A stretch of 64,000 bases of DNA from a virus (lineage: Duplodnaviria; Heunggongvirae; Uroviricota; Caudoviricetes). Position 1 is the first letter of the stretch. Each line of letters opens with the position of its first letter. Position numbers and translations under genes: made by a program. The notes below the pieces were generated by a model, which did no database searches, was not told the DNA's origin, and saw only the letters and a list, made by a program, of their open reading frames with translations. Positions 34,021 through 64,000 of the stretch are shown here, one piece after another. The DNA lies in IMG/VR virus record IMGVR_UViG_2687453424_000001. One strand, 5' to 3'.

Positions 34021-34105
34021 GAATATTCAGGCCAGTTATGCTTTCTGGCCTGTAACAAAGGACATTAAGTAAAGACAGATAAACGTAGACTAAAACGTGG
34101 TCGCA

Positions 34106-36559: not shown

Positions 36560-36830
36560 TAGCCAATTCAGAGTAATAAACTGTGATAATCAACCCTCAT
36601 CAATGATGACGAACTAACCCCCGATATCAGGTCACATGACGAAGGGAAAGAGAAGGAAATCAACTGTGACAAACTGCCCTCAAATTTGGCTTCCTTAAAA
36701 ATTACAGTTCAAAAAGTATGAGAAAATCCATGCAGGCTGAAGGAAACAGCAAAACTGTGACAAATTACCCTCAGTAGGTCAGAACAAATGTGACGAACCA
36801 CCCTCAAATCTGTGACAGATAACCCTCAGA
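36560..36830. promoter_or_regulatory. incC: incC iteron region of the F replicon (RepE-binding direct repeats)
   Basis: Repeated tgtgaca(a/g)a(c/t)(t/c)(g/a)ccctca(a/g) elements between sopA and repE (e.g. tgtgacaaactgccctcaaat, tgtgacaaattaccctcag, tgtgacgaaccaccctcaaat, tgtgacagataaccctcag). Confidence 0.75.
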
Positions 36831-37900
<1,070 letters not shown>

Positions 37901-38359
37901 GTTTTTTCAGGCATCGTGTGTAAGCAGAATATATAAGTGCTGTTCCCTGGTGCTTCCTCGCTCACTCGAGGGCTTCGCCCTGTCGCTCGACTGCGGCGAG
38001 CACTACTGGCTGTAAAAGGACAGACCACATCATGGTTCTGTGTTCATTAGGTTGTTCTGTCCATTGCTGACATAATCCGCTCCACTTCAACGTAACACCG
38101 CACGAAGATTTCTATTGTTCCTGAAGGCATATTCAAATCGTTTTCGTTACCGCTTGCAGGCATCATGACAGAACACTACTTCCTATAAACGCTACACAGG
38201 CTCCTGAGATTAATAATGCGGATCTCTACGATAATGGGAGATTTTCCCGACTGTTTCGTTCGCTTCTCAGTGGATAACAGCCAGCTTCTCTGTTTAACAG
38301 ACAAAAACAGCATATCCACTCAGTTCCACATTTCCATATAAAGGCCAAGGCATTTATTC

Positions 38360-38810
38360 TCAGGATAATTGTTTCAGCATCGCAACCGCATCAGACTCCG
38401 GCATCGCAAACTGCACCCGGTGCCGGGCAGCCACATCCAGCGCAAAAACCTTCGTGTAGACTTCCGTTGAACTGATGGACTTATGTCCCATCAGGCTTTG
38501 CAGAACTTTCAGCGGTATACCGGCATACAGCATGTGCATCGCATAGGAATGGCGGAACGTATGTGGTGTGACCGGAACAGAGAACGTCACACCGTCAGCA
38601 GCAGCGGCGGCAACCGCCTCCCCAATCCAGGTCCTGACCGTTCTGTCCGTCACTTCCCAGATCCGCGCTTTCTCTGTCCTTCCTGTGCGACGGTTACGCC
38701 GCTCCATGAGCTTATCGCGAATAAATACCTGTGACGGAAGATCACTTCGCAGAATAAATAAATCCTGGTGTCCCTGTTGATACCGGGAAGCCCTGGGCCA
38801 ACTTTTGGCG
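38360..38810 (-). CDS. resD: Tyrosine site-specific recombinase ResD (labelled redF in BAC vector maps), C-terminal ~150 aa only; N-terminus lost in N-run
   Basis: Visible translation ...VTPHTFRHSYAMHMLYAGIPLKVLQSLMGHKSISSTEVYTKVF... carries tyrosine-recombinase box II (HxxR) and the catalytic Tyr context; its position beside ori2 fits the F/BAC backbone. Confidence 0.8.
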
Positions 38811-41800: not shown

Positions 41801-43161
41801 NNNNNNNNNNNNNNNNNNNNNNNNNNNNNNNNNNNNNNNNNNNNNNNNNNNNNNNNNNNNNNNNNNNNNNNNNNNNNNNNNNNNNNNNNNNNNNNNNNNN
41901 NNNNNNNNNNNNNNNNNNNNNNNNNNNNNNNNNNNNNNNNNNNNNNNNNNNNNNNNNNNNNNNNNNNNNNNNNNNNNNNNNNNNNNNNNNNNNNNNNNNN
42001 NNNNNNNNNNNNNNNNNNNNNNNNNNNNNNNNNNNNNNNNNNNNNNNNNNNNNNNNNNNNNNNNNNNNNNNNNNNNNNNNNNNNNNNNNNNNNNNNNNNN
42101 NNNNNNNNNNNNNNNNNNNNNNNNNNNNNNNNNNNNNNNNNNNNNNNNNNNNNNNNNNNNNNNNNNNNNNNNNNNNNNNNNNNNNNNNNNNNNNNNNNNN
42201 NNNNNNNNNNNNNNNNNNNNNNNNNNNNNNNNNNNNNNNNNNNNNNNNNNNNNNNNNNNNNNNNNNNNNNNNNNNNNNNNNNNNNNNNNNNNNNNNNNNN
42301 NNNNNNNNNNNNNNNNNNNNNNNNNNNNNNNNNNNNNNNNNNNNNNNNNNNNNNNNNNNNNNNNNNNNNNNNNNNNNNNNNNNNNNNNNNNNNNNNNNNN
42401 NNNNNNNNNNNNNNNNNNNNNNNNNNNNNNNNNNNNNNNNNNNNNNNNNNNNNNNNNNNNNNNNNNNNNNNNNNNNNNNNNNNNNNNNNNNNNNNNNNNN
42501 NNNNNNNNNNNNNNNNNNNNNNNNNNNNNNNNNNNNNNNNNNNNNNNNNNNNNNNNNNNNNNNNNNNNNNNNNNNNNNNNNNNNNNNNNNNNNNNNNNNN
42601 NNNNNNNNNNNNNNNNNNNNNNNNNNNNNNNNNNNNNNNNNNNNNNNNNNNNNNNNNNNNNNNNNNNNNNNNNNNNNNNNNNNNNNNNNNNNNNNNNNNN
42701 NNNNNNNNNNNNNNNNNNNNNNNNNNNNNNNNNNNNNNNNNNNNNNNNNNNNNNNNNNNNNNNNNNNNNNNNNNNNNNNNNNNNNNNNNNNNNNNNNNNN
42801 NNNNNNNNNNNNNNNNNNNNNNNNNNNNNNNNNNNNNNNNNNNNNNNNNNNNNNNNNNNNNNNNNNNNNNNNNNNNNNNNNNNNNNNNNNNNNNNNNNNN
42901 NNNNNNNNNNNNNNNNNNNNNNNNNNNNNNNNNNNNNNNNNNNNNNNNNNNNNNNNNNNNNNNNNNNNNNNNNNNNNNNNNNNNNNNNNNNNNNNNNNNN
43001 NNNNNNNNNNNNNNNNNNNNNNNNNNNNNNNNNNNNNNNNNNNNNNNNNNNNNNNNNNNNNNNNNNNNNNNNNNNNNNNNNNNNNNNNNNNNNNNNNNNN
43101 NNNNNNNNNNNNNNNNNNNNNNNNNNNNNNNNNNNNNNNNNNNNNNNNNNNNNNNNNNNNN
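38811..43161. other. N-run, 4351 nt, between the resD 5' part and the cat promoter
   Basis: Uninterrupted n characters. Confidence 1.
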
Positions 43162-43275
43162 AAATGAGACGTTGATCGGCACGTAAGAGGTTCCAACTTT
43201 CACCATAATGAAATAAGATCACTACCGGGCGTATTTTTTGAGTTATCGAGATTTTCAGGAGCTAAGGAAGCTAAA
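43162..43275 (+). promoter_or_regulatory. Tn9 cat promoter and RBS region
   Basis: Sequence immediately upstream of cat (...ttttgagttatcgagattttcaggagctaaggaagctaaaATG) is the standard cat cassette leader. Confidence 0.8.
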
Positions 43276-43935
43276 ATGGAGAAAAAAATCACTGGATATA
43301 CCACCGTTGATATATCCCAATGGCATCGTAAAGAACATTTTGAGGCATTTCAGTCAGTTGCTCAATGTACCTATAACCAGACCGTTCAGCTGGATATTAC
43401 GGCCTTTTTAAAGACCGTAAAGAAAAATAAGCACAAGTTTTATCCGGCCTTTATTCACATTCTTGCCCGCCTGATGAATGCTCATCCGGAATTTCGTATG
43501 GCAATGAAAGACGGTGAGCTGGTGATATGGGATAGTGTTCACCCTTGTTACACCGTTTTCCATGAGCAAACTGAAACGTTTTCATCGCTCTGGAGTGAAT
43601 ACCACGACGATTTCCGGCAGTTTCTACACATATATTCGCAAGATGTGGCGTGTTACGGTGAAAACCTGGCCTATTTCCCTAAAGGGTTTATTGAGAATAT
43701 GTTTTTCGTCTCAGCCAATCCCTGGGTGAGTTTCACCAGTTTTGATTTAAACGTGGCCAATATGGACAACTTCTTCGCCCCCGTTTTCACCATGGGCAAA
43801 TATTATACGCAAGGCGACAAGGTGCTGATGCCGCTGGCGATTCAGGTTCATCATGCCGTTTGTGATGGCTTCCATGTCGGCAGAATGCTTAATGAATTAC
43901 AACAGTACTGCGATGAGTGGCAGGGCGGGGCGTAA
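43276..43935 (+). CDS. cat: Chloramphenicol acetyltransferase (Tn9 type I CAT), 219 aa
   Basis: Full-length [76 protein letters not shown]...[28 protein letters not shown]. Confidence 0.97.
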
Positions 43936-43947
43936 TTTTTTTAAGGC

Positions 43948-44202
43948 CATAGGCAAGGTGAGTTTACACGCGCCATTGTATATCGCGTTCCTACACGCCT
44001 GCCGGTTGGCGACATCAGCCGGCAACATGAGAATGGAAATGGCGGCGATGGAGAGCCCGAAAACGACGACGAATTTGGGGAAATACGCTTGGTTAGCGTC
44101 GTCCGGGTGCTGGTAATTGACGAGGAGGTAGACATTGAAGAGGAACACTAGGACGCATACGATTATGGCGACGATTACCAGAGCGAGGTTGAAATCGCCC
44201 AT
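43948..44202 (-). CDS. Plant LMBR1-like membrane protein, first coding exon, truncated by the vector junction
   Basis: Minus-strand translation from ATG at 44202..44200 reads MGDFNLALVIVAIIVCVLVFLFNVYLLVNYQHPDDANQAYFPKFVVVFGLSIAAISILMLPADVANRQACRNAIYNGACKLTLPM, which I recall as the conserved N-terminus of plant LMBR1-like proteins. Similarity stops where cat-downstream vector sequence begins (~43946). Confidence 0.6.
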
Positions 44203-45378
44203 CGTTAAAAGCCCTCGACTCGATTCGAATCGAATCGATAGCGGTAGATTCAACAGGAGATTTGAGAAATTAGGGTTTGCTTTTAACCCTTCGAATTTTA
44301 ATTCGAAGAATTTCGTAGATCTGAGCTTTCCTCTGTGTGTGTGTGTTTTTTTGAAAGGGAAAGGGGGGAGGTTGGGCTCCGGTGAGGTGGTTTGTTGAAT
44401 TTTGGGGTTAATTTTGACGTGTTGGAATTAAATGACGTTATTATCCTTGTGAATTGGTTAAATGACGGGTTGAAAATAGCGAGGAAGAGAGTTGCAGATG
44501 GGGTTGAATGTAACATCACCTTATATTCCCGTGACAAGCATCGAACCAGCCTGTCCAAGGCAAGAAGTTGTTTTTTAAAAAAAAAATTTACATGTAAGAA
44601 ATAACGCTATTTGAACTTTTAGACCGCTTTCTTTATCTTTTATTCCCGTAGAGAAATTCTCTCAATTTTGTTCTTTTTTTTTCCTCAAATCTTTTATTGT
44701 TCTTAATTATACCCTTCAATTGATATAAAAAAATAATTAGTAATTCTTTTTAGGTACGTAAGATTGAGATACTATTATGAATGAAAATTCTAGCTCAAGC
44801 TCCTCACATTTTATTAACGAACTCTTAAATTTTAATTTAAAACTAAACAAGTTTTTAATTTTAACAAAGATTTAACTGTCATTAGATTCGATGTTAATTG
44901 ACTTTTTTACTCACATGATATATTACTTGACGAATTAACATGATAATGTGATTGTTGACGTGGCTAAAAAAATATAATGAGTTTGGTCACATTAGTTGCG
45001 CGTGACCTCACCAATTCACTAAATCATATATCATGTGGACAGGAAAAATAATTAATATTGACTCTAATATTGATTAAATTTTTATTAAAATTAAAAGCTT
45101 GTTCGATTTTAAATCAAAATTTAAGAGTTTGTTTGAATGCAATAATTAAATAAATGATGATAGTACGTAAAATGTTTTTAGGATTGAAGCCATAATTTTA
45201 AGACAATATAAGCAACAAGTGTCTTATTTACTCATGTTCTCACCTAAAGACTTTTTTATGTTGTTACTTAGTGCATGTTTGGTTTAACTTTTTTTCAGTT
45301 TATCTATTTATTGAAAGTAAAAGTTAGGCCAAATATAATATTTTGAAAAACTCTTAAAAAAAAGTAACTTTTTTTAAG

Positions 45379-48300
45379 NNNNNNNNNNNNNNNNNNNNNN
45401 NNNNNNNNNNNNNNNNNNNNNNNNNNNNNNNNNNNNNNNNNNNNNNNNNNNNNNNNNNNNNNNNNNNNNNNNNNNNNNNNNNNNNNNNNNNNNNNNNNNN
45501 NNNNNNNNNNNNNNNNNNNNNNNNNNNNNNNNNNNNNNNNNNNNNNNNNNNNNNNNNNNNNNNNNNNNNNNNNNNNNNNNNNNNNNNNNNNNNNNNNNNN
45601 NNNNNNNNNNNNNNNNNNNNNNNNNNNNNNNNNNNNNNNNNNNNNNNNNNNNNNNNNNNNNNNNNNNNNNNNNNNNNNNNNNNNNNNNNNNNNNNNNNNN
45701 NNNNNNNNNNNNNNNNNNNNNNNNNNNNNNNNNNNNNNNNNNNNNNNNNNNNNNNNNNNNNNNNNNNNNNNNNNNNNNNNNNNNNNNNNNNNNNNNNNNN
45801 NNNNNNNNNNNNNNNNNNNNNNNNNNNNNNNNNNNNNNNNNNNNNNNNNNNNNNNNNNNNNNNNNNNNNNNNNNNNNNNNNNNNNNNNNNNNNNNNNNNN
45901 NNNNNNNNNNNNNNNNNNNNNNNNNNNNNNNNNNNNNNNNNNNNNNNNNNNNNNNNNNNNNNNNNNNNNNNNNNNNNNNNNNNNNNNNNNNNNNNNNNNN
46001 NNNNNNNNNNNNNNNNNNNNNNNNNNNNNNNNNNNNNNNNNNNNNNNNNNNNNNNNNNNNNNNNNNNNNNNNNNNNNNNNNNNNNNNNNNNNNNNNNNNN
46101 NNNNNNNNNNNNNNNNNNNNNNNNNNNNNNNNNNNNNNNNNNNNNNNNNNNNNNNNNNNNNNNNNNNNNNNNNNNNNNNNNNNNNNNNNNNNNNNNNNNN
46201 NNNNNNNNNNNNNNNNNNNNNNNNNNNNNNNNNNNNNNNNNNNNNNNNNNNNNNNNNNNNNNNNNNNNNNNNNNNNNNNNNNNNNNNNNNNNNNNNNNNN
46301 NNNNNNNNNNNNNNNNNNNNNNNNNNNNNNNNNNNNNNNNNNNNNNNNNNNNNNNNNNNNNNNNNNNNNNNNNNNNNNNNNNNNNNNNNNNNNNNNNNNN
46401 NNNNNNNNNNNNNNNNNNNNNNNNNNNNNNNNNNNNNNNNNNNNNNNNNNNNNNNNNNNNNNNNNNNNNNNNNNNNNNNNNNNNNNNNNNNNNNNNNNNN
46501 NNNNNNNNNNNNNNNNNNNNNNNNNNNNNNNNNNNNNNNNNNNNNNNNNNNNNNNNNNNNNNNNNNNNNNNNNNNNNNNNNNNNNNNNNNNNNNNNNNNN
46601 NNNNNNNNNNNNNNNNNNNNNNNNNNNNNNNNNNNNNNNNNNNNNNNNNNNNNNNNNNNNNNNNNNNNNNNNNNNNNNNNNNNNNNNNNNNNNNNNNNNN
46701 NNNNNNNNNNNNNNNNNNNNNNNNNNNNNNNNNNNNNNNNNNNNNNNNNNNNNNNNNNNNNNNNNNNNNNNNNNNNNNNNNNNNNNNNNNNNNNNNNNNN
46801 NNNNNNNNNNNNNNNNNNNNNNNNNNNNNNNNNNNNNNNNNNNNNNNNNNNNNNNNNNNNNNNNNNNNNNNNNNNNNNNNNNNNNNNNNNNNNNNNNNNN
46901 NNNNNNNNNNNNNNNNNNNNNNNNNNNNNNNNNNNNNNNNNNNNNNNNNNNNNNNNNNNNNNNNNNNNNNNNNNNNNNNNNNNNNNNNNNNNNNNNNNNN
47001 NNNNNNNNNNNNNNNNNNNNNNNNNNNNNNNNNNNNNNNNNNNNNNNNNNNNNNNNNNNNNNNNNNNNNNNNNNNNNNNNNNNNNNNNNNNNNNNNNNNN
47101 NNNNNNNNNNNNNNNNNNNNNNNNNNNNNNNNNNNNNNNNNNNNNNNNNNNNNNNNNNNNNNNNNNNNNNNNNNNNNNNNNNNNNNNNNNNNNNNNNNNN
47201 NNNNNNNNNNNNNNNNNNNNNNNNNNNNNNNNNNNNNNNNNNNNNNNNNNNNNNNNNNNNNNNNNNNNNNNNNNNNNNNNNNNNNNNNNNNNNNNNNNNN
47301 NNNNNNNNNNNNNNNNNNNNNNNNNNNNNNNNNNNNNNNNNNNNNNNNNNNNNNNNNNNNNNNNNNNNNNNNNNNNNNNNNNNNNNNNNNNNNNNNNNNN
47401 NNNNNNNNNNNNNNNNNNNNNNNNNNNNNNNNNNNNNNNNNNNNNNNNNNNNNNNNNNNNNNNNNNNNNNNNNNNNNNNNNNNNNNNNNNNNNNNNNNNN
47501 NNNNNNNNNNNNNNNNNNNNNNNNNNNNNNNNNNNNNNNNNNNNNNNNNNNNNNNNNNNNNNNNNNNNNNNNNNNNNNNNNNNNNNNNNNNNNNNNNNNN
47601 NNNNNNNNNNNNNNNNNNNNNNNNNNNNNNNNNNNNNNNNNNNNNNNNNNNNNNNNNNNNNNNNNNNNNNNNNNNNNNNNNNNNNNNNNNNNNNNNNNNN
47701 NNNNNNNNNNNNNNNNNNNNNNNNNNNNNNNNNNNNNNNNNNNNNNNNNNNNNNNNNNNNNNNNNNNNNNNNNNNNNNNNNNNNNNNNNNNNNNNNNNNN
47801 NNNNNNNNNNNNNNNNNNNNNNNNNNNNNNNNNNNNNNNNNNNNNNNNNNNNNNNNNNNNNNNNNNNNNNNNNNNNNNNNNNNNNNNNNNNNNNNNNNNN
47901 NNNNNNNNNNNNNNNNNNNNNNNNNNNNNNNNNNNNNNNNNNNNNNNNNNNNNNNNNNNNNNNNNNNNNNNNNNNNNNNNNNNNNNNNNNNNNNNNNNNN
48001 NNNNNNNNNNNNNNNNNNNNNNNNNNNNNNNNNNNNNNNNNNNNNNNNNNNNNNNNNNNNNNNNNNNNNNNNNNNNNNNNNNNNNNNNNNNNNNNNNNNN
48101 NNNNNNNNNNNNNNNNNNNNNNNNNNNNNNNNNNNNNNNNNNNNNNNNNNNNNNNNNNNNNNNNNNNNNNNNNNNNNNNNNNNNNNNNNNNNNNNNNNNN
48201 NNNNNNNNNNNNNNNNNNNNNNNNNNNNNNNNNNNNNNNNNNNNNNNNNNNNNNNNNNNNNNNNNNNNNNNNNNNNNNNNNNNNNNNNNNNNNNNNNNNN

Positions 48301-49520
48301 NNNNNNNNNNNNNNNNNNNNNNNNNNNNNNNNNNNNNNNNNNNNNNNNNNNNNNNNNNNNNNNNNNNNNNNNNNNNNNNNNNNNNNNNNNNNNNNNNNNN
48401 NNNNNNNNNNNNNNNNNNNNNNNNNNNNNNNNNNNNNNNNNNNNNNNNNNNNNNNNNNNNNNNNNNNNNNNNNNNNNNNNNNNNNNNNNNNNNNNNNNNN
48501 NNNNNNNNNNNNNNNNNNNNNNNNNNNNNNNNNNNNNNNNNNNNNNNNNNNNNNNNNNNNNNNNNNNNNNNNNNNNNNNNNNNNNNNNNNNNNNNNNNNN
48601 NNNNNNNNNNNNNNNNNNNNNNNNNNNNNNNNNNNNNNNNNNNNNNNNNNNNNNNNNNNNNNNNNNNNNNNNNNNNNNNNNNNNNNNNNNNNNNNNNNNN
48701 NNNNNNNNNNNNNNNNNNNNNNNNNNNNNNNNNNNNNNNNNNNNNNNNNNNNNNNNNNNNNNNNNNNNNNNNNNNNNNNNNNNNNNNNNNNNNNNNNNNN
48801 NNNNNNNNNNNNNNNNNNNNNNNNNNNNNNNNNNNNNNNNNNNNNNNNNNNNNNNNNNNNNNNNNNNNNNNNNNNNNNNNNNNNNNNNNNNNNNNNNNNN
48901 NNNNNNNNNNNNNNNNNNNNNNNNNNNNNNNNNNNNNNNNNNNNNNNNNNNNNNNNNNNNNNNNNNNNNNNNNNNNNNNNNNNNNNNNNNNNNNNNNNNN
49001 NNNNNNNNNNNNNNNNNNNNNNNNNNNNNNNNNNNNNNNNNNNNNNNNNNNNNNNNNNNNNNNNNNNNNNNNNNNNNNNNNNNNNNNNNNNNNNNNNNNN
49101 NNNNNNNNNNNNNNNNNNNNNNNNNNNNNNNNNNNNNNNNNNNNNNNNNNNNNNNNNNNNNNNNNNNNNNNNNNNNNNNNNNNNNNNNNNNNNNNNNNNN
49201 NNNNNNNNNNNNNNNNNNNNNNNNNNNNNNNNNNNNNNNNNNNNNNNNNNNNNNNNNNNNNNNNNNNNNNNNNNNNNNNNNNNNNNNNNNNNNNNNNNNN
49301 NNNNNNNNNNNNNNNNNNNNNNNNNNNNNNNNNNNNNNNNNNNNNNNNNNNNNNNNNNNNNNNNNNNNNNNNNNNNNNNNNNNNNNNNNNNNNNNNNNNN
49401 NNNNNNNNNNNNNNNNNNNNNNNNNNNNNNNNNNNNNNNNNNNNNNNNNNNNNNNNNNNNNNNNNNNNNNNNNNNNNNNNNNNNNNNNNNNNNNNNNNNN
49501 NNNNNNNNNNNNNNNNNNNN
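45379..49520. other. N-run, 4142 nt
   Basis: Uninterrupted n characters. Confidence 1.
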
Positions 49521-52234
49521 CTTCTGTTATTTTAAAAATACAATTAAATTTTTATTTTTATTTCAAAAATATCTTCAATTGTTAAAAATAATTACAATAT
49601 TATTTTTTTTAAAAAATACTTTCTATGATAATTTTAACAAAAATTATAATTTATAAAAAAGAACTTATAAAAAAAATTTACCAAACAACTTTAACTTAAT
49701 TTTAAAAATTATTACTTTTCATAAAAACTTCATAATAGCTTTTATGTTAGAAAAAAGTCAAGTCAAACAAGCTCTTAATTTAATCTTAACAATGGCTTTG
49801 CCTCTATTTGAGCATTAACCACACGTAATGTCATCAAGGGAGAAGAAGTAGTTGCCATTTTGGGCTAGTCATGAATTGAGAAGAGAAGCGTAGCATGAAG
49901 AGTACCTAGCATTGATTGCATTATCAAGCTTATATCTTCATCAGAAACTAAACCCAAATGGCAGAGCAAAACATCAAAATGGGAAGCTTTTTTCCTCATT
50001 TTTTGAATTTCTAGCGCAACCCTTTTCAGAGAACTACTTAGTCATCCTGATATCACCTCCATTTCACCTGTATTTTGTCAGTTCCTTTCATGGCGATGGC
50101 TACAACTTTTTGCACTGCTTCTGTAATGATTCCGAGTAAATAATTATTTGTTGATTATGTACCTTGCTGGTGGTTGGTTTATGTATGATGGAAATCTTAA
50201 TCTTTTCAATTTTCCTGGGAATTTCAGACTGTGACTGTGACCACCATTTCTTTTGATTCTTAATCTATGCCTCATTTGTCAAGAGAAAGAGTTTTCATGC
50301 ATCAGTTGGACCCAGAGTCCTGGATTTAACTTTTAACAGGAACACGTGAAATGATTATATCTTGTCAAATATTTAGACAAAAAGTTATCTCAATTTTGGG
50401 TACAAACTCCTTTCCCTGTATCCTGGAGGACTAGTGGGTAGAGGAGAGAAAGACAGCTGCTTGGTTTTTTTTTTTTTCTTACAATTTCCCCTGTTTTTTC
50501 GTACACGATGCCGCCACAGAGCCTGTACCGAGCTGACAACAACTTTCCATCTACTTCTTGATGAATGACTCTTTTATTCGTTCAATCTTTGCCTTGAATT
50601 GCTTTGCCGGATCTCCCATTCAAATTCTGGGATTGAAACCTGGCAGCAATTCTTTCCTGCCATTACTCTTTGTAGAATAACTCTCCCCGGTAATACCCTG
50701 AATCCATTATTTACTATCCTGGAAGATTGGCTCTATCTGGCAATAGTTTTCTCAAGTTCCAGATTTTCAACTTTCGTTTCTTTCTTTAGCGTTGATCTGA
50801 CAACGTTTCTGTCACTGTCATTCATTCCGATGATGGAGATGGGGAAAAGGGTTAACACCAGATTCAAAATGCAAACATCTAAGACTACGAAATTAATCAA
50901 ACAAGGATTCATTTAGCAGGAACTGGGAAGAACATTAAATGCTGTCTTCAACTTGTAAATTTATACATTGATAAATGAAATCCAAGCAAGTTTTTCACAT
51001 GGATTATGCAGATTGTATATCAGAGAAACTCTTTTCGAGACAGGGCATGTGAAAATCTAGCTGGAAAGCCAAGGGAAAAGCTTTAAAGCTTGATGAATTT
51101 CATCCGGATCTTGTACCACCCTCCCTTGCATAATCCGATAGCCTTCCATCCTTGTCTGAATAAAGATCTGATATCATTACGTTTTACTACCTTCATTTGA
51201 TTATGTCCATCTGCCATTTCCAAACTTGCAAATGAATGTACTCTTCCCTATGATCTTACCCTTTTTCCATTGATGGTGCTTCATCTTTATACTAATAGTT
51301 GATGGCGCTGCTACCAGTCTCCTTTACCCAAGCAACAGATTCAGTTCATTGGCTTCGATTGTTGCTTGCGCCAGTTCTTTGTTAGAGGCTCTAATGAAAT
51401 CCCAACTATTTTAGTTTTATCCGTGCTACTTCTACCGGCGGTTGGACAGTTTTTTCTATGGTCGGAAATTCGCCGGATTAATGCCGCTAATGTATTGATT
51501 AAACCGTATTTAGTTTTCTAACATATGATATTAATTATATGATAACACTCTTTTATCTCATAAATCTCAATTTATCCGTTTTAAACCTTAAATTCCAGAC
51601 TTCTAAAGGTTAGGAATAAAATATCTTTTTGAAAATTATTCGACAACATGACTGTTTTTTAAATATTATTTAAGAACAATTCAATAATTAAGAATAACAA
51701 TAAATACGATAATTATGATTATATTTTTTTATGAAAACAGCATCGATTATTCTTAATTAATATTAATTTTATATGTCATATAAGATTATATAATATCACT
51801 CTTTTATCTCAAAATTTCGGTTCACCCACCTTAAAATTTAAATTCGAAACTTTTAAAAATAGAATTGGGTTTGGAAATTGTTCAAGAGTAATAATCAGTG
51901 ACAGAAACAAATGCCGACAATTATATCTTCCACCAAACCAACGGCGACTATTCAATTCTACCTAACCAAATTTTCGTTTTGACTTTCAACCATCCAATAA
52001 CCTCATGCCACGTCAGAAAGCAACCCCGCATGTAACTACCTTAGCAGATATTAACCGTCACCTCTTCCCGGCTTACTCCAACTACCAGTCGTAGCAAGAA
52101 GAAGAAGACTGATCGGTGAGCTTCCAGTTAACTCCGATTCTTCCACTCTCCTTCATGGACTCTGCTCCCCCAATTCTCCAAACTTCCATTTCTTTAATCC
52201 CTAGCGTCAGGGTTTCCTTCTCGATTTCTCAAAT

Positions 52235-55200
52235 ATGGCGGAGCCAAATCGGAGTTCACCTTCCGCCTCCGCCTCCGCCTCTGCCTCCTCCTCCTCTTCA
52301 TCTTCGTCTTACAGGGAGGATTCAGGCGGTGCGGCCGGGGCGGCGGCGTCGTCTTCGGGTACTTCTTCGCAGGTTCGAGAGGAAGAGGAAGGGCAAGATC
52401 ACGAGTATCGGCAGCATCTGCAGCATTTTCATAACCCTGAGCTAGAGAATCAGCACATTGACCTAGTTTCTTATAGAGGTAACTTATCTGGTTTCGATGA
52501 TTCGTCAACGGTGATTGGAGACGACACGTGGTCTTGCATCATCGTGGTTCTCACTTTTTGGTTTTTCGGTTAGTACCCTTTTCCCCTTTCTCATGAATCG
52601 CTCGTTCTTTACATTTGAAAGTAAAAGCTTTTATCTTATGTTGATTCTTTTCGATTGATTTTCTTTTTGAATCGAACAGTGTCTATGACTTTGATTTTGG
52701 GTGTTTACGGGGCGGTGAATATACGGGTCGGTCCGAATTGTTCCCTTCTACTTCAACCGAATCCTATTTTTGTTCAGAGTGTAAAGGTGATTTGCCTTTT
52801 TCTTTTTTCCTTTCTAATTTTTTGATTCGTTTCATGCTTTTTCTTTAAAGGGAAGGGTGGTTTTTGGGTCTATATCTTATTTGGCTTTGTGTTAGGTTGA
52901 GGAGGTAGATGATACCAAGCCAGGGCTCAAACTATATGGATTTTATAAATCTCCATCTCTTGATGTAGTGACTACCTGGTCTGAAACTCGTACCGCTACT
53001 GTTCAAGCTGATTCTCACAAGGCAAGTTCGGTTTCTTGTTCTGTTTTTTGCTTGAATGTTTTGGTTCTGAACTTGTATTTCATTTCCCAAATTTTTTTTA
53101 TATTATCCAGGAGTGGATTCATTATCTGAACAGGGGCTCTCAAGTTAATATTTCATATAATGTGAACTCAGCAGGCTCCTCTGTTTTCCTTATAATTGCT
53201 CAAGGTATCCTGAAACACTAAAAGCTTTTTCAGAATGTGTTTCTCAAAGAATTATTTTCACAAAGTGTGTGTGGAAATGCTGTAGATTAAGTAATTGAAT
53301 CCTGGGAATCTGATGCTTTAATTCATTTTGTCACATTGCAGGCAGTGAGGGCCTTTCTCAATGGCTTGAGGACCCAACATATCCTAACACCACTTTGTCG
53401 TGGAACATTGTTCGTGGTGAGATGGAAATGCAAAAGTATGAATGTTCTTACTATATAGAGTTTTATGCTGACTTTGATATTACTTTTCGGCAGGAAGTGG
53501 TATGATTCAGCAGGATATATATAGATCTTCAAGTTACTATATTGCACTGGGTAATTTGAACTCAGAGGATGTGGAGGTAATTGAAAAAATTTGACCTGCC
53601 GAGCTTGGTTTGTTGTTTTGGTTCTTTCATTGAAGTTCTGCTAAAATATTTGAGATATTGAGATCAAAACTTCATTGTCTTCTGTTACCAACCTCAGAAA
53701 AGAAACGTTTCATGGTGCTTGTCCCTTTTGATTTGTCAGAATTGATATTATGATATGATTGAAGAATCGGATTAACTTACTAAGAAAGGGTTACTTTAAT
53801 CCATTTAAGCAATGCTACATTGTAACTGTGGTGGAAATATTATAAGTGCAGCAATGTCAAGTAAAACTTTGGGCTGAGGAGGGTGTTTATTTCTGCAAGG
53901 CTGCAGTTATAGAAGTATAGGAATCTATAATATGGATTGACATTTTTATGGTAAACATGAGAACATAAATGCTGCAAGTCTCAATTTACTTTAAAAGTTT
54001 GTATGAATGTCAGATGGACTAATGGGCAAAATTGAATAGCCATGGATCCATTTTCCTAACAATTATTTAAGCATATGACTTCAAAATATTAATTCCAAGA
54101 AACTCAGAACCTGCCAAGTCAGGTTTGAGAGGCAGGTATATATAATGGATATCTCAAGTTCAAGTAAATGCGCTGTAGGTGACAAAAAAGCCTATCATTC
54201 TCTCAGATTTCACTGAACCTTTTCTTTTTATTAGATGCTGTTCCCTTGCCCTTTTTTGTGTTCTTTGGTTTCATCTTTTCACATAAAAATTGAGTTGATT
54301 TTAACATTGAACAGGTGGAGTTAAACATCACAGTCAGGGCTTTCATCTACAATACAACTGAAGCTTACTACAGATGTACCTTCGGTAATGGCCTGTGTAG
54401 CTTGAGTGTTTTGTTTCCTCAGGGAAATTCTGTTGTCTTGACTTCTCCAGGTCTAGAACAGGTAAATCTCTTTTTATTTTAAACCTAAATCCTACTTTCT
54501 ATGTCTTTCTTGAGATTATGTCGTTTTGAAGGCTGTTACAGCGGCATTCCTATGTTATTAGGCATGATAAATATATGTTCTAATGCTTCCGTCTGTGCTG
54601 AATAATTTCTTATCTTTTGAAGTGCTATACTGAATAATTTCTAAATCCTGTTTTAGAAAGTCTTTTCATTTTCTGTTCTCCCTCTTTTTGGCTACTTCAG
54701 AGTACATCTGCAGATGACTGGTCTGTCAGATTGTCATATGGACCAAGATGGATTATATATATAGTTGGCATTGGTAAAGTTCTTTCTTTTAATTACTCTA
54801 AATGCGCAACCTTTACAAATGTTTCATGTTTAAATCTTGAATTCTAATTTTCTTCTTAAAGGTGGAATGACAGCAATCATGTTGGTAGCCTTCAACTTCT
54901 TAAACAAGTTCCAATTTACCCGTGGAGGTGAAACAAATCTTCATTATGGGGAGAATGCTTCTGCAAGGGCCCCTCTGCTTTCTAACAAAGATGATGATAT
55001 CTCAAGTTGGGGTTCATCCTACGATTCTGTCTCAAGTGATGAGGCAGATCTTGAAGATTTTCTGGCAGCAGGTTCTGTTGAAGGGACATCAATAAGAGAA
55101 GGTGAAAACAGTAACAATACCCGACGTCTTTGTGCAATTTGCTTCGATGCTCCAAGGGACTGCTTCTTCCTTCCTTGTGGGCACTGTGTGGCTTGCTTTG

Positions 55201-55463
55201 CATGTGGATCTAGGTAACTACTTTGCATCCTCACCTTTTTTACACGAAAGGTTGCTTTGGAAATAGTCTAGCTTCATTCTTAACCCTGCTCCCAATTTAC
55301 AACAGCAGGCTGTTCATCACCCTTAATGGTTCCCAGAACTTGAAATTTGCTCCTATCTGATGTTGTGCTGTAACTGATCTTTTGCAGAATCGCAGAGGCT
55401 GCTGGAACTTGCCCCATTTGCCGTCGGAACATGAAGAAAGTGAGGAAGATTTTCACAGTATAA
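52235..55463 (+). CDS. Plant APD-like transmembrane RING-type (C3HC4) E3 ubiquitin ligase gene, predicted 10 exons, ~488 aa
   Basis: Manual gene model: exons 52235..52568, 52680..52786, 52896..53021 (GC donor), 53111..53204, 53342..53416, 53494..53576, 54315..54461, 54701..54773, 54862..55213, 55388..55463, total 1467 nt in frame. Acceptors are AG and donors GT apart from one GCAAGT. The C-terminus carries RING motif [41 protein letters not shown] split by the last intron; hydrophobic segments and a Ser/Ala-rich N-terminus are present. Individual splice boundaries are less certain than the gene call. Confidence 0.7.
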
Positions 55464-56742
55464 GTCACATTGAGCTCCTTTGCCAGCAGCAGAGCTTGCA
55501 CAGCCTGCCTGCTTCAATGAGTTGCAGTACGTTTTTGATGGGTCACTGCTTTTTATGCTCAAGTAAATGACACTCAGAAGGGGGATTATAAGCATTGATT
55601 TTTTTTAAAAGATGGAAGGAGCCATGCATTTTGTTTCCCTGGATGGCCTTCCACCATGTAATACTATCATCGGTACATAATGTTCGAGTAGACCAAGTCA
55701 AAGCTTCCAATGTAACTCTTTTCATTTCCCCCCCATTGATTACCAATTTAAGGCGCAGCAACTTCAAACTGAGATACTGTACCTTCCTGTCCTTCATTCT
55801 TTGGTATCTTTCAGCCTTCTCAACAGCATCAAGTAAACGACTAATCCAATCCCGTTTTTAATGCTTTTAGAGTATTTCTTACTATATTTTTTAATATTAT
55901 ATTCGAACATTTAATTCAATAATAAATATAAATATCTTTTTATTTAAAAAATAAAGTCGAATCCTTTATTAAAAAAAAAAAGGGTTCGGATGTCTTTTTT
56001 TTTAAATAAATAAAATTCAAATTTAATCAAAACTTAATCAATTTGTTTTATATTACAGTTTTAAAAAACAATAGTAAATCTCATAATAATTATGCATTAG
56101 AATAAAATTAAATATTTAACTGTTTTGATTATAATAAATTAAGGATGAAATGACAGGAGGGAGAAGGAAGATTTGCTTCTTTTTCTTTTTTCCACGAGGA
56201 AGTGGACTGGCGGAAAGAGAGTCAAAGCCATAGTTGACAGAAGTTGCAGTAGACAAGTTCGAGAAGCTTTCCTTTTCCTTTCTCTATTTCCCCCCACCTT
56301 CTGAACGTGGGGATCAAGATAACTATGGCCAACAAGATTGGAAACGAGCGGCGGCCTTCACTGCCTTCCTCCCAGCCTCTTAATATACTTTCTTTTTTCC
56401 CATCCCTGTTTTTGGCCCACCGCTTCTTCAGACCATGGTCATAATCATGACAGTGACATCAAAGTCAAAATTTTATTGTTAATAAAATATAACCTAATGT
56501 TTTTAGTCAACAGATTAATTGAACTAACTTTGACTACTTTATTTAACGAATTGCACAAAATCAACCAAGTTCGAGCTAGTTTATAATTAATTTATTCATA
56601 TTATTAGTTAAATTTAATTAAGTAAAATTGTGATATTTTATAATTTGATTCGAATAAGTTTTAAATTAAAAAATTAGGTTTGGACAATGATCACAAAATA
56701 TTTGTTTTTCGAATTTGATTATAAATGTTATTTTTAATAATT

Positions 56743-59700
56743 NNNNNNNNNNNNNNNNNNNNNNNNNNNNNNNNNNNNNNNNNNNNNNNNNNNNNNNNNN
56801 NNNNNNNNNNNNNNNNNNNNNNNNNNNNNNNNNNNNNNNNNNNNNNNNNNNNNNNNNNNNNNNNNNNNNNNNNNNNNNNNNNNNNNNNNNNNNNNNNNNN
56901 NNNNNNNNNNNNNNNNNNNNNNNNNNNNNNNNNNNNNNNNNNNNNNNNNNNNNNNNNNNNNNNNNNNNNNNNNNNNNNNNNNNNNNNNNNNNNNNNNNNN
57001 NNNNNNNNNNNNNNNNNNNNNNNNNNNNNNNNNNNNNNNNNNNNNNNNNNNNNNNNNNNNNNNNNNNNNNNNNNNNNNNNNNNNNNNNNNNNNNNNNNNN
57101 NNNNNNNNNNNNNNNNNNNNNNNNNNNNNNNNNNNNNNNNNNNNNNNNNNNNNNNNNNNNNNNNNNNNNNNNNNNNNNNNNNNNNNNNNNNNNNNNNNNN
57201 NNNNNNNNNNNNNNNNNNNNNNNNNNNNNNNNNNNNNNNNNNNNNNNNNNNNNNNNNNNNNNNNNNNNNNNNNNNNNNNNNNNNNNNNNNNNNNNNNNNN
57301 NNNNNNNNNNNNNNNNNNNNNNNNNNNNNNNNNNNNNNNNNNNNNNNNNNNNNNNNNNNNNNNNNNNNNNNNNNNNNNNNNNNNNNNNNNNNNNNNNNNN
57401 NNNNNNNNNNNNNNNNNNNNNNNNNNNNNNNNNNNNNNNNNNNNNNNNNNNNNNNNNNNNNNNNNNNNNNNNNNNNNNNNNNNNNNNNNNNNNNNNNNNN
57501 NNNNNNNNNNNNNNNNNNNNNNNNNNNNNNNNNNNNNNNNNNNNNNNNNNNNNNNNNNNNNNNNNNNNNNNNNNNNNNNNNNNNNNNNNNNNNNNNNNNN
57601 NNNNNNNNNNNNNNNNNNNNNNNNNNNNNNNNNNNNNNNNNNNNNNNNNNNNNNNNNNNNNNNNNNNNNNNNNNNNNNNNNNNNNNNNNNNNNNNNNNNN
57701 NNNNNNNNNNNNNNNNNNNNNNNNNNNNNNNNNNNNNNNNNNNNNNNNNNNNNNNNNNNNNNNNNNNNNNNNNNNNNNNNNNNNNNNNNNNNNNNNNNNN
57801 NNNNNNNNNNNNNNNNNNNNNNNNNNNNNNNNNNNNNNNNNNNNNNNNNNNNNNNNNNNNNNNNNNNNNNNNNNNNNNNNNNNNNNNNNNNNNNNNNNNN
57901 NNNNNNNNNNNNNNNNNNNNNNNNNNNNNNNNNNNNNNNNNNNNNNNNNNNNNNNNNNNNNNNNNNNNNNNNNNNNNNNNNNNNNNNNNNNNNNNNNNNN
58001 NNNNNNNNNNNNNNNNNNNNNNNNNNNNNNNNNNNNNNNNNNNNNNNNNNNNNNNNNNNNNNNNNNNNNNNNNNNNNNNNNNNNNNNNNNNNNNNNNNNN
58101 NNNNNNNNNNNNNNNNNNNNNNNNNNNNNNNNNNNNNNNNNNNNNNNNNNNNNNNNNNNNNNNNNNNNNNNNNNNNNNNNNNNNNNNNNNNNNNNNNNNN
58201 NNNNNNNNNNNNNNNNNNNNNNNNNNNNNNNNNNNNNNNNNNNNNNNNNNNNNNNNNNNNNNNNNNNNNNNNNNNNNNNNNNNNNNNNNNNNNNNNNNNN
58301 NNNNNNNNNNNNNNNNNNNNNNNNNNNNNNNNNNNNNNNNNNNNNNNNNNNNNNNNNNNNNNNNNNNNNNNNNNNNNNNNNNNNNNNNNNNNNNNNNNNN
58401 NNNNNNNNNNNNNNNNNNNNNNNNNNNNNNNNNNNNNNNNNNNNNNNNNNNNNNNNNNNNNNNNNNNNNNNNNNNNNNNNNNNNNNNNNNNNNNNNNNNN
58501 NNNNNNNNNNNNNNNNNNNNNNNNNNNNNNNNNNNNNNNNNNNNNNNNNNNNNNNNNNNNNNNNNNNNNNNNNNNNNNNNNNNNNNNNNNNNNNNNNNNN
58601 NNNNNNNNNNNNNNNNNNNNNNNNNNNNNNNNNNNNNNNNNNNNNNNNNNNNNNNNNNNNNNNNNNNNNNNNNNNNNNNNNNNNNNNNNNNNNNNNNNNN
58701 NNNNNNNNNNNNNNNNNNNNNNNNNNNNNNNNNNNNNNNNNNNNNNNNNNNNNNNNNNNNNNNNNNNNNNNNNNNNNNNNNNNNNNNNNNNNNNNNNNNN
58801 NNNNNNNNNNNNNNNNNNNNNNNNNNNNNNNNNNNNNNNNNNNNNNNNNNNNNNNNNNNNNNNNNNNNNNNNNNNNNNNNNNNNNNNNNNNNNNNNNNNN
58901 NNNNNNNNNNNNNNNNNNNNNNNNNNNNNNNNNNNNNNNNNNNNNNNNNNNNNNNNNNNNNNNNNNNNNNNNNNNNNNNNNNNNNNNNNNNNNNNNNNNN
59001 NNNNNNNNNNNNNNNNNNNNNNNNNNNNNNNNNNNNNNNNNNNNNNNNNNNNNNNNNNNNNNNNNNNNNNNNNNNNNNNNNNNNNNNNNNNNNNNNNNNN
59101 NNNNNNNNNNNNNNNNNNNNNNNNNNNNNNNNNNNNNNNNNNNNNNNNNNNNNNNNNNNNNNNNNNNNNNNNNNNNNNNNNNNNNNNNNNNNNNNNNNNN
59201 NNNNNNNNNNNNNNNNNNNNNNNNNNNNNNNNNNNNNNNNNNNNNNNNNNNNNNNNNNNNNNNNNNNNNNNNNNNNNNNNNNNNNNNNNNNNNNNNNNNN
59301 NNNNNNNNNNNNNNNNNNNNNNNNNNNNNNNNNNNNNNNNNNNNNNNNNNNNNNNNNNNNNNNNNNNNNNNNNNNNNNNNNNNNNNNNNNNNNNNNNNNN
59401 NNNNNNNNNNNNNNNNNNNNNNNNNNNNNNNNNNNNNNNNNNNNNNNNNNNNNNNNNNNNNNNNNNNNNNNNNNNNNNNNNNNNNNNNNNNNNNNNNNNN
59501 NNNNNNNNNNNNNNNNNNNNNNNNNNNNNNNNNNNNNNNNNNNNNNNNNNNNNNNNNNNNNNNNNNNNNNNNNNNNNNNNNNNNNNNNNNNNNNNNNNNN
59601 NNNNNNNNNNNNNNNNNNNNNNNNNNNNNNNNNNNNNNNNNNNNNNNNNNNNNNNNNNNNNNNNNNNNNNNNNNNNNNNNNNNNNNNNNNNNNNNNNNNN

Positions 59701-60502
59701 NNNNNNNNNNNNNNNNNNNNNNNNNNNNNNNNNNNNNNNNNNNNNNNNNNNNNNNNNNNNNNNNNNNNNNNNNNNNNNNNNNNNNNNNNNNNNNNNNNNN
59801 NNNNNNNNNNNNNNNNNNNNNNNNNNNNNNNNNNNNNNNNNNNNNNNNNNNNNNNNNNNNNNNNNNNNNNNNNNNNNNNNNNNNNNNNNNNNNNNNNNNN
59901 NNNNNNNNNNNNNNNNNNNNNNNNNNNNNNNNNNNNNNNNNNNNNNNNNNNNNNNNNNNNNNNNNNNNNNNNNNNNNNNNNNNNNNNNNNNNNNNNNNNN
60001 NNNNNNNNNNNNNNNNNNNNNNNNNNNNNNNNNNNNNNNNNNNNNNNNNNNNNNNNNNNNNNNNNNNNNNNNNNNNNNNNNNNNNNNNNNNNNNNNNNNN
60101 NNNNNNNNNNNNNNNNNNNNNNNNNNNNNNNNNNNNNNNNNNNNNNNNNNNNNNNNNNNNNNNNNNNNNNNNNNNNNNNNNNNNNNNNNNNNNNNNNNNN
60201 NNNNNNNNNNNNNNNNNNNNNNNNNNNNNNNNNNNNNNNNNNNNNNNNNNNNNNNNNNNNNNNNNNNNNNNNNNNNNNNNNNNNNNNNNNNNNNNNNNNN
60301 NNNNNNNNNNNNNNNNNNNNNNNNNNNNNNNNNNNNNNNNNNNNNNNNNNNNNNNNNNNNNNNNNNNNNNNNNNNNNNNNNNNNNNNNNNNNNNNNNNNN
60401 NNNNNNNNNNNNNNNNNNNNNNNNNNNNNNNNNNNNNNNNNNNNNNNNNNNNNNNNNNNNNNNNNNNNNNNNNNNNNNNNNNNNNNNNNNNNNNNNNNNN
60501 NN
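56743..60502. other. N-run, 3760 nt
   Basis: Uninterrupted n characters. Confidence 1.
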
Positions 60503-61171
60503 AATTATTTTAAATTTGAATTTTTATGAATATTGGTAATTAAATTTGAATGTTAAATATATTAATTGAATTCGGGTAAACTATATAATTAAATTTTAAT
60601 GGAATTCGGGCATCTATTTGGTGATATTCTTTAAGTCTTTCTTAAAAAAAAGAAAAACAATTAAGGGCAAATAAAGTACAATTAATTATTTGCCATTAAC
60701 AGCTTAAAATAATCAAATGCGGAGAAAGACTGCTGTGCCGCTACTTCCAACGAATGAATGGAAACCCGCCTTCCCACGTCAGCACACTTTCCCCGAACCG
60801 GGGTTTTCGCATAGCGAAATTGCGTGGCCTCCAACCCTACTATACACTATGTCTGAATCTCCTTTTAAGATTGCTTGAAACCTCTATCTCCACCGTCCGA
60901 TGGAAATATCATTTACCAGGATGAACATCGTAGGCCAAATCAGGAAGAGTGTACGTAAACTAACCCACAGGGTAAGTCTCCTCACTTCCAAGCAAGAACC
61001 ATTCAAAACTCTCGTCTACTTAAACCTATCTCTCGCCACCTTCTCTGCTTCGCCTCTTCTCTCCCAATTCCTTCAATTATCTTCTATTTGGGTTTTGTTT
61101 TTGGATTTTGATCTTTCCATTTGCAAAGGAAAAAAGCTCGTCTCTCTTTCTGTTTCTGTAGCTTTTTGGGT

Positions 61172-62101
61172 ATGGCAGGAACCGGGGTGGTTGCTGTTTA
61201 TGGAAACGGGGCGATAACCGAAACCCACAAGTCTCCTTTCTCAGTGAAAGTTGGGTTGGCGCAAATGCTCCGAGGCGGGGTCATCATGGACGTGGTCACC
61301 CCGGAACAAGCCCGCATCGCTGAAGAAGCGGGAGCCTGCGCCGTCATGGCTCTCGAGCGAGTCCCGGCCGATATCCGAGCTCAAGGCGGTGTGGCCCGAA
61401 TGAGTGATCCACAACTCATCAAGGAAATTAAGCAAGCGGTTACTATCCCCGTCATGGCTAAGGCCCGTATTGGTCATTTCGTTGAGGCCCAGATCCTTGA
61501 AGCCATCGGAATCGATTATGTTGACGAGAGCGAAGTGCTTACCCCAGCCGACGAAGAGAACCACATTAACAAACATAATTTTCGGATTCCTTTCGTTTGC
61601 GGGTGTCGGAATTTGGGGGAAGCGCTTCGGAGGATCCGGGAAGGAGCTGCTATGATTCGAACCAAAGGAGAAGCTGGGACCGGCAACATTATCGAAGCCG
61701 TTAGGCACGTGAGGTCCGTGATGGGAGACATTAGGGTGCTTAGAAACATGGATGATGATGAGGTTTTCAGCTTCGCTAAGAAAATTCAGTCCCCATACGA
61801 TTTGGTCATGCAGACGAAGCAACTGGGGAGGTTGCCCGTGGTGCACTTTGCTGCCGGAGGAGTGGCGACGCCGGCTGATGCGGCGTTGATGATGCAGTTG
61901 GGCTGCGATGGAGTGTTTGTGGGGTCTGGGGTTTTTAAGAGTGGTGACCCGGCGAGACGGGCCCGGGCTATTGTCCAGGCCGTCACTCATTATAGTGACC
62001 CGGACGTGCTTGCTGAAGTTAGCTGTGGGCTTGGTGAGGCTATGGTTGGTCTTAATTTGAATGATAAGAAGGTTGAGAGGTTCGCGGCTCGGTCTGAATA
62101 A
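61172..62101 (+). CDS. PDX1: Plant pyridoxal 5'-phosphate synthase subunit PDX1 (SNZ/PdxS family), intronless, 309 aa
   Basis: Uninterrupted ORF; from [42 protein letters not shown]... to ...VERFAARSE it is near-identical to plant PDX1 as I recall it (Arabidopsis PDX1.3). The track ORF starts 17 codons upstream at 61121, but the conserved start is the Met at 61172. Confidence 0.9.
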
Positions 62102-63817
62102 TGTGTTTGAAGCTTTTCGGGCTACGTGGAGGTGAGAAATTCCACTGTTATTATATTTAATTTTTGTCTTTTTTAAGCGTTTAAGCTTGAAAATTTGATG
62201 GTATATAATGTATTTGATTTTTAAGTTGAATAATTTTTGTCTAGTAGTGAACTTTCTACTGTTCTTTTATTGGTTTTTGTATGTCAAATTTCTGAATTGG
62301 GAAATGGATTGGGTTATTAGCCGTGAATGGGGTATGACTGCTTTGTTTCTCTTTGGTGACATCAATGGTGATTCTTTATGCAAATAGTAAAGCTGCCTGC
62401 TAAAGTGATGAGTTTTTGAGAGATACTTGGCTTTCCTGTTCTTTTCGTATTGTTTACGCATACATAGCTTTGGATTCTACTATACTTTCCCGATTTTCAA
62501 CATAGTTTGGTGACGATTTGGACTGCACCATTTTGATTATAATAAGTTGTTGATGCATTTCATTGAACTTCTACTGTGATGTTTTGTTGTCATATTCTTT
62601 TGTTACAATTTTGAAGTAGTTGGGAGGTAGTGATTGATAGCAAAAGGTGACTTGATGTTACTGGATTTTGACATAAATGATACTACTATAACATGCTTCC
62701 AAAGTGATGCTTGTAGTTAGTTGAGCTTCTGAATGTGAAGTCATTTATTCATTCCTCCCAATTTGTCCACTTGATGCTGGTATATTGGATTTTTGTTGTT
62801 AGTTTTTTGCTTTCTGCCGAATGCTTCATACGTTACTTGCTTTTGATATTTGAGCAATGTTTTGAAGCATTCATCATTGTGGAGAGGTTTTGATTGCCTT
62901 TGCAGGAATCCTTTCACCATGGGACTGGTACCATCGCCTGCATTATGTGCACTTTTTCCAGATTATGCAAGTCAAAAGTGTAGTTTTTGATACAGTGGGG
63001 TGTACCTTTATGTCTAAATGGATGTTTTCGATAAACTCTGCTGTTTCGTTATCTCTTTTAAGATTGCTAGGAATTATAACAGCTTGTCTCTGCATTCTGC
63101 AAGTATACTCATGTAATTTTTCGTTAATTAGGCTCTACAGAAACTTTACCTGCATTTTCAGATGGTATTGGTCCATGGTTTAAGTGGCTTTGCTGGTTAC
63201 CAAATTTTCTTTTTGTTCCATCTTGATGCATGTATGCTATCCTACCTGCTGAATAAAATTTTCCATTACTTGGTCATCTAGCCTGTAATTATTTTTGTTG
63301 CTGGTAGCCCCCTGGTTTTTCCTCCTAGGAGAATCTCCCTGATGAAAAGCATACAAGACTAGTGCATAGACACTTCATATACTGTTTTAATTGAGATGAG
63401 TTATAGCCTTATTTTCAAACCCGAAAACCAGATCTGATCTGAAATTAGCTTGAACCTGAAATGACTTTGAACTTGTAATGTTCTGAATCTATAATTCAAA
63501 ACGATCCAATCTACTTCTTCTAACAGAAATGAGATTCCTACTTTAATAAGCCATTTCTCTCAACTAAACATGTAAACATGTTGTAATTGGGGATGACGGA
63601 CGGAAAGGTGGGTGGGGTTATGTGCTGCTGGTTTTAAACAAGATTTCCCCATTAAAACATGTTGCGAAGAAGAGGCATATGAATTCAATAAAAAGATCTC
63701 AGAACTCTGAAGCTAACATGAGCGAATTACAACAAACAGAAACTTGCTGATTAGCAAGGCTCGTAACTACTTCACAATTAGTAAAAACTTGAGCAGAAAC
63801 GACTCTAGCTCCTCAAA

Positions 63818-64000
63818 TTACTCTTTGCCCACGGCTTGTAAGAGAAGGAGCAATTGAAAAAAGTAGTACGAAGCACCCCCAAGCGTAGCATATTGCAACT
63901 TTTCAGGTCCTTCCACTTCCGGGAAATCACCATCTGCAGCACGATTGAATCCTCCGGCCAACCACCCCAAGTTCTTGTATCCTCCCTCGTATAACTTTGA
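63818..64000 (-). CDS. Possible 3'-terminal coding exon of a plant gene running off the window edge (rhodanese-like C-terminus?)
   Basis: Minus-strand frame open from the window edge to a stop at 63820..63818: SKLYEGGYKNLGWLAGGFNRAADGDFPEVEGPEKLQYATLGGASYYFFQLLLLLQAVGKE*. Resembles the end of a rhodanese-like domain followed by a hydrophobic tail; weak recollection only. Confidence 0.3.
   Translation of the reverse strand, partial: SKLYEGGYKNLGWLAGGFNRAADGDFPEVEGPEKLQYATLGGASYYFFQLLLLLQAVGKE

Follow-up and report, generated by a model that had tools for sequence, protein, structure and literature searches.

Theobroma cacao DNA carrying an LMBR1–APD–PDX1 gene neighbourhood, joined to a mini-F vector in a viral sequence record

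Counterparts of the plant genes considered here are known in Arabidopsis thaliana, where published papers list At5g01410 as pdx1.3, At5g01450 as APD2 and At5g01460 as a 'LIMR family protein'. In the TAIR10 assembly (CP002688.1, 172013-192526), the order along this part of chromosome 5 is methyltransferase(-), LMBR1 of 509 amino acids(-), APD of 444 amino acids(+), AT5G01445(+), PqqF-like(-), Got1(+), glutaredoxin(+), PDX1.3(+) and symplekin(+), and on chromosome 2 it is GDSL lipase, APD, APD and PDX1.1. Genes for an LMBR1-like protein, an APD-type RING E3 ligase and PDX1 are also found between positions 43948 and 64000 of a 64 kb stretch of DNA, here called the window, from the IMG/VR virus record IMGVR_UViG_2687453424_000001. 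The window is made up of ten stretches of real sequence and nine N-runs, and joins DNA from three unrelated sources, namely vertebrate DNA, a vector of the mini-F bacterial artificial chromosome (BAC) type, and plant DNA. The coordinates of all features are collected in Table 1.

Six chromosome-scale records were found to encode a 309 amino acid PDX1 identical to the protein in the window, and the three pieces of plant DNA were compared by BLASTN with these six loci, which are from Matina 1-6, Criollo, Herrania umbratica, GCA_036851095.1, GCA_036851125.1 and GCA_036851155.1. In the literature, GCA_000403535.1 is the cacao reference Matina 1-6 and GCA_000208745.2 is Criollo B97-61/B2. All three pieces are collinear, in order, with a single place in Matina 1-6 (CM001883.1, approximately 824,956-837,189), and this part of the window is a single, genuine and collinear locus of cacao, of Matina 1-6 type. 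From the order of the accession numbers in both cacao references, CM001883.1 is probably chromosome 5. The pieces are 98.0-99.4 % identical to Criollo, with one 410 base stretch of the first piece at only 92 %, and 90-94 % identical to Herrania. The differences from Matina 1-6 are in the lengths of A/T homopolymers, apart from one substitution of 2 nt beside a T-run (at approximately 55994). Such homopolymer differences are what 454 or long-read error typically produces, and they suggest that the same genotype was sequenced independently.

The initial annotation had predicted that the plant segment began at 43948, was one contiguous locus and would be useful for naming the species, and each of these predictions was borne out. 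The match to cacao begins exactly at 43948, which is position 596 of the Matina locus, and identity to the vector stops at 43947. The species is Theobroma cacao, at 99.7-100 % identity to Matina 1-6, and all three genes point to this one taxon, the best match of the APD protein being T. cacao at 99 %. Contiguity is shown more strongly by collinearity with the cacao reference than by the microsynteny that was originally put forward. We note that the label 'contaminating species', which was applied to the plant, takes it for granted that the host is represented by the DNA that is not from the plant. The order and strands of the three genes were also as first described, but the LMBR1-like gene is present only as a fragment of 85 codons.

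Table 1. Features of the 64 kb window. L001 is the Matina 1-6 locus used for comparison; identities are to that locus.
Feature	Position	Strand	Details
Vertebrate DNA	1-28757
Olfactory-receptor fragment	1078-1425		Pfam 7tm_4
Reverse-transcriptase-like fragment	20532-20978
Mini-F BAC-type vector	28758-43947		lambda cos fragment, sopC, sopB, sopA, repE, resD fragment, catA1
N-run in vector	29436-33845		4410 N for 215 bases of sopC repeats
N-run in vector	38811-43161		4351 N for 1 base
catA1, chloramphenicol acetyltransferase gene	43276-43935	+	vector gene; context, not plant DNA
Vector/cacao junction, blunt	43947/43948		12 nt past the cat stop codon
Plant DNA (Theobroma cacao)	43948-64000
Cacao piece, first	43948-45378		L001 596-2030; 99.72 % (1431/1435)
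LMBR1-like (LIMR family) fragment	44202-43948	-	exon 1, codons 1-85 only; starts MGDFNLALVIV
N-run, LMBR1-APD intergenic	45379-49520		4142 N for 53 A/T-rich bases in the reference; flanks L001 2030 and 2084
Cacao piece, second	49521-56742		L001 2084-9307; 99.89 % (7218/7226)
APD-type membrane-anchored RING E3 ligase gene, complete	52235-55463	+	10 exons, 488 amino acids; manual splice model
APD exons 1-5	52235-52568, 52680-52786, 52896-53021, 53111-53204, 53342-53416	+	GC donor after exon 3
APD exons 6-10	53494-53576, 54315-54461, 54701-54773, 54862-55213, 55388-55463	+
N-run, APD-PDX1 intergenic	56743-60502		3760 N for 24 A/T-rich bases in the reference; flanks L001 9307 and 9332
Cacao piece, third	60503-64000		L001 9332-12829; 100 % (3498/3498)
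PDX1, pyridoxal 5'-phosphate synthase subunit (PdxS/SNZ family), complete	61172-62101	+	intronless, 309 amino acids
Rhodanese-domain gene, 3' end	63818-64000	-	last 60 codons and stop; cut by the window edge
Differences from Matina 1-6	44560-44680, 50464-50480, 55965-56000, 56738

Relative to the Matina 1-6 locus, the genes, their order and their strands are the same. However, in the window the locus breaks off within exon 1 of LMBR1, where the vector is attached, and stretches of 53 and 24 bases have become N-runs of several kilobases. The plant part occupies 20053 positions, of which 7902 are N. All four N-runs for which a reference was available, two in the plant part and two in the vector, far exceed the sequence they replace. 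The N-runs in the plant part conceal no genes, because the reference has no more than 53 and 24 bases at these places. The idea that each of them masks approximately 4 kb of actual plant DNA, with additional genes, was discarded on this ground and because the vector runs behave alike. The wrong sizes might have come from read-pair scaffolding with an assumed insert of several kilobases, though this is speculation.

The vector part resembles mini-F vectors of the pBeloBAC11/pIndigoBAC type, with which it shares sopC, sopB, sopA, repE, ori2, the resD fragment and cat (99.9-100 % identical to pMiniF_lysY), as well as a lambda cos fragment. Positions 43162-43947 correspond to 2260-1475 of pMiniF_lysY (NZ_CP053598.1), and catA1 is 99.9-100 % identical to catA1 of 829 plasmid records. 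A copy-control vector carrying oriV was considered and rejected, as 33846-38810 is contiguous with a mini-F that lacks oriV. In contrast to vectors of the pBeloBAC11/pIndigoBAC type, the stretch that runs from 12 nt past cat through the cloning site and into part of cos is missing from the window, and both ends of the vector are fused to foreign DNA at non-canonical points. The cloning-site, lacZ and loxP region is wholly gone.

At the cacao end of the vector the sequence reads ...GGGGCGTAATTTTTTTAAGGC up to 43947 and CATAGGCAAGG... from 43948. The join is blunt, lacks microhomology and is not at the cloning site. A canonical BAC or fosmid junction, with a cloning site, lacZ-alpha, T7 or SP6 sequences and a restriction half-site, is not what is seen at 43947/43948, and no T7, SP6, M13, lacZ-alpha or loxP motif was found anywhere in the window. 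The other end of the vector, at 28757/28758, is cut within the lambda cos fragment and fused to vertebrate DNA. Both joins are continuous sequence with no N.

The gene order LMBR1(-), APD(+), PDX1(+), rhodanese(-), symplekin(+) is found at all six of the loci compared above. In cacao, the native LMBR1-APD spacer is approximately 3.95 kb long and the APD-PDX1 spacer approximately 1.1-2 kb. On Arabidopsis chromosome 5, the LMBR1, APD, PDX1 and symplekin genes (the last of which we take to be At5g01400) are in the same order and relative orientation as in cacao. The proteins are 92.6 % (PDX1; 286 of 309 residues, with no gaps), 87 % (the LMBR1 N-terminus) and, in pieces, 30-44 % (APD) identical to those of cacao. 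However, the AT5G01445, PqqF-like, Got1 and glutaredoxin genes (approximately 10 kb) separate APD2 from PDX1.3, and there are none between the two in cacao. In addition, the rhodanese gene is absent between PDX1.3 and symplekin, and the LMBR1-APD spacer is 0.58 kb. The initial annotation gave the three Arabidopsis genes as neighbours; their order and their Arabidopsis Genome Initiative codes agree with the literature, but APD2 and PDX1.3 are not immediately adjacent. Its statement that PDX1.1 lies near APD genes on chromosome 2 was accurate, as two APD genes are directly upstream of it. There, as in cacao, an APD(+) gene immediately precedes PDX1(+). However, the APD genes form a tandem pair, a GDSL lipase gene rather than LMBR1 is upstream, and a 2OG-oxygenase gene rather than rhodanese and symplekin is downstream. 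A further Arabidopsis assembly, GCA_019202805.1 (CM032910.1, 226403-260732), contains PDX1.3 twice, as identical copies separated by 13.4 kb and with a glutaredoxin gene before each of them, which represents a local tandem duplication.

Among other eudicots, apricot (Prunus armeniaca) has LMBR1(-), APD(+), PDX1(+), symplekin(+), and poplar has GDSL(-), APD(+), PDX1(+), rhodanese(-). Grape has two copies. The first is APD, PI-PLC, rhodanese(-), with PI-PLC occupying the place of PDX1 between APD and rhodanese (Vitis vinifera CP126655.1, 8560559-8587210), and the second is APD, GT90, PDX1. A GT90 gene is beside APD in Tetracentron too, and in kiwifruit APD is followed by NIF(-); LMBR1 and PDX1 were not found within 10 kb of APD in either. 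The same order and relative strands are therefore seen in independent genomes, namely at the cacao and Herrania loci, in apricot and on Arabidopsis chromosome 5. On gene order and strand, LMBR1(-), APD(+), PDX1(+), symplekin(+) is an ancestral rosid block that has been kept in both malvids and fabids, and the linkage of APD to PDX1 is older and has been partly eroded elsewhere. There is no indication that LMBR1, APD and PDX1 are functionally coupled, and the fact that they lie side by side is best seen as the persistence of an ancestral order. The match to species and genotype, the collinearity, the gene content, the synteny, the positions of the junctions and the true sizes of the gaps are direct observations.

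Very probably, then, 43948-64000 represents 12.2 kb of Theobroma cacao nuclear DNA, from Matina 1-6 or a source indistinguishable from it, that is present as contamination or as an assembly chimera with the vector. For the origin of the chimera, which we infer to be in the laboratory, and the way it formed, cloned cacao DNA would have entered the assembly of another project as contamination, and would then have been chimerically joined to a truncated mini-F BAC-type vector and scaffolded with wrongly sized gaps. In this window the cacao DNA is inert cargo. Because BAC libraries of Matina 1-6 have been made in pIndigoBAC536, and pooled linkage group 5 BACs have been sequenced by 454, cloned cacao DNA is a plausible source, though not a proven one. 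Some observations weigh against this account. The join between vector and cacao is not at the cloning site and hence does not represent an ordinary end of a BAC insert; the chimera is either a physical molecule or a product of the assembler, and the sequence alone does not distinguish these. A 47-mer spanning the junction had no match in genome, viral and metagenome contig collections. With respect to gene order, LMBR1 was not found beside APD, within 10 kb, in poplar, grape, Tetracentron or kiwifruit, and because of this the full block is not universal among eudicots. The mini-F vector directly beside cacao DNA, the existence of the Matina 1-6 BAC libraries and the homopolymer-type differences that suggest independent sequencing of the same genotype would also suit a genuine BAC or fosmid, with the cacao piece as the end of its insert and the record as an unfinished clone with its own vector. 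We consider this very unlikely, given that the join is 12 nt past the cat stop and far from lacZ and the cloning site, that T7, SP6, M13, lacZ-alpha and loxP are absent, that the other vector end is cut in lambda cos, and that one clone would not hold both cacao and vertebrate DNA. True integration of the plant DNA into the genome of a host, where it would have arrived horizontally or been introduced as a transgene, is in keeping with a sequence that continues across 43947/43948 with no N. It is nevertheless next to impossible when the identity to a cultivated cacao reference clone is 99.7-100 %, introns and intergenic DNA included, the flank is a laboratory vector with cat, repE and sopABC, and the scaffold gaps are mis-sized. 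Equally, it is barely conceivable that a molecule composed of vertebrate, vector and cacao DNA was physically inside the source organism, whether as an integrated transgene or through horizontal transfer. A milder form of the physical-molecule reading is a real rearranged chimeric clone and, if true, it would matter for curation only.

A donor other than Matina 1-6, either another Theobroma or Herrania species or another cacao genetic group, is unlikely. The comparison took in six assemblies only, and one of these (GCA_036851155.1, locus L006) is also 100 % identical over 60503-64000. However, over the 7.2 kb piece Matina 1-6 differs by 2 mismatches and homopolymer indels (99.89 %), whereas L006 has 37 mismatches, the remaining three cacao-like loci have 63-86 each, and Herrania is 90-94 % identical. 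Over 49521-56742, Matina 1-6 could not be told apart from a closely related Amelonado clone. It is also highly improbable that the gene order common to cacao and Arabidopsis is a coincidence rather than conserved synteny. The four unrelated genes between Arabidopsis APD2 and PDX1.3, and the several eudicots in which LMBR1 is not beside APD, could be taken that way, but the order and strands of LMBR1, APD, PDX1 and symplekin are kept in cacao, Herrania, apricot and Arabidopsis chromosome 5, and APD and PDX1 are again linked on Arabidopsis chromosome 2, in poplar and in grape.

PDX1, a vitamin B6 synthase, provides the synthase subunit of the pyridoxal 5'-phosphate synthase complex, and the lysines of two motifs are catalytic in PdxS/PDX1 proteins. 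In the cacao protein both motifs, MAKARIG and RTKGEAG, are intact and the same as in Arabidopsis PDX1.3. The protein matches Pfam SOR_SNZ with 376.9 bits (cut-off 27) over profile positions 2-207 of 207, and scores against solved chains were 624 bits for PDX1.3, 585 for PDX1.1 and 423 for PDX1.2. Because both lysine motifs are intact and the scores are higher for PDX1.3 and PDX1.1 than for PDX1.2, cacao PDX1 is predicted to be of the catalytic type (PDX1.1/1.3) and not a PDX1.2 pseudoenzyme. It starts with MAGTGVV where Arabidopsis PDX1.3 has MEGTGVV, a difference that had been correctly pointed out. No gene for the PDX2 glutaminase partner was found in the window.

According to PMC4036515, which cites Luo et al. 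(2012), Arabidopsis APD1-4 have been reported to act as E3 ligases and to take part in pollen mitosis II, and loss of APD1 and APD2, the genes for two plant-specific RING proteins, leads to a larger share of bicellular-like pollen in this species. The cacao APD protein contains the domains that characterize the APD1-4 family, with scores of 84.4 bits for Pfam APD1-4_N, 115.9 for APD1-4_M and 48.6 for the C-terminal C3HC4 RING (zf-C3HC4_3), all above the cut-offs, and is thus a predicted RING E3 ligase of that family. It has two hydrophobic segments, at approximately residues 100-122 and 339-360. Among proteins that have a name, those most similar to it are 'E3 ubiquitin-protein ligase APD2' and 'APD1-4'. 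A homology search with 40 amino acids from the C-terminal part of Arabidopsis APD2 gave no matches. The model is identical to T. cacao protein P0001 (488/488) except for a three-residue splice difference (QVI/VIQ). The GC donor of intron 3 (53021/53022) agrees with P0001 and with Herrania; splicing from a GT donor that lies 9 nt further downstream would insert Ala-Ser-Ser, as in cacao protein P0002.

The LMBR1-like fragment scores 54.4 bits against Pfam LMBR1 (cut-off 31.9). The junction with the vector truncates it at 43948, and the complete gene of approximately 510 amino acids is not in the window; the intact gene encodes 510-512 amino acids at all six reference loci. At the other end, the rhodanese gene, with which the cacao locus continues and which does not appear in the initial annotation, occupies L001 12647-13379(-). 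Position 12647 corresponds to 63818 of the window, and the frame in the window is open and ends in a stop codon. No Rfam family reached threshold in 43948-64000, no repeats of at least 40 bases were found in 49521-56742, and, as expected, the cacao pieces had no matches in phage and plasmid collections.

In the vertebrate part, the reverse-transcriptase-like fragment had no match in Pfam and is presumably CR1-like (CR1 elements being long interspersed nuclear elements of birds and reptiles). A bacterial origin for positions 1-22073 was discarded, as they gave no matches to Escherichia coli genomes and the DNA there is vertebrate. The sequence AAGCTT (HindIII) at 20260-20265 opens the piece that directly follows a run of 5381 N, and this is how a vector-trimmed HindIII BAC insert end is expected to look. 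A single run of 20 N (21512-21531) lies amid N-runs of 3.5-5.6 kb, which suggests that there are two kinds of gap in the source record.

The practical use of these findings is in curation. They flag Theobroma cacao DNA of Matina 1-6 type next to a mini-F BAC-type vector, in a record whose N-gaps have the wrong lengths and in which DNA from three unrelated sources has been combined, and we recommend that the record be screened for vector and foreign DNA and that this part be removed. The locus is already known, as it is contained in public cacao assemblies, and its biological weight is small: the gene order is plain retained ancestral synteny.

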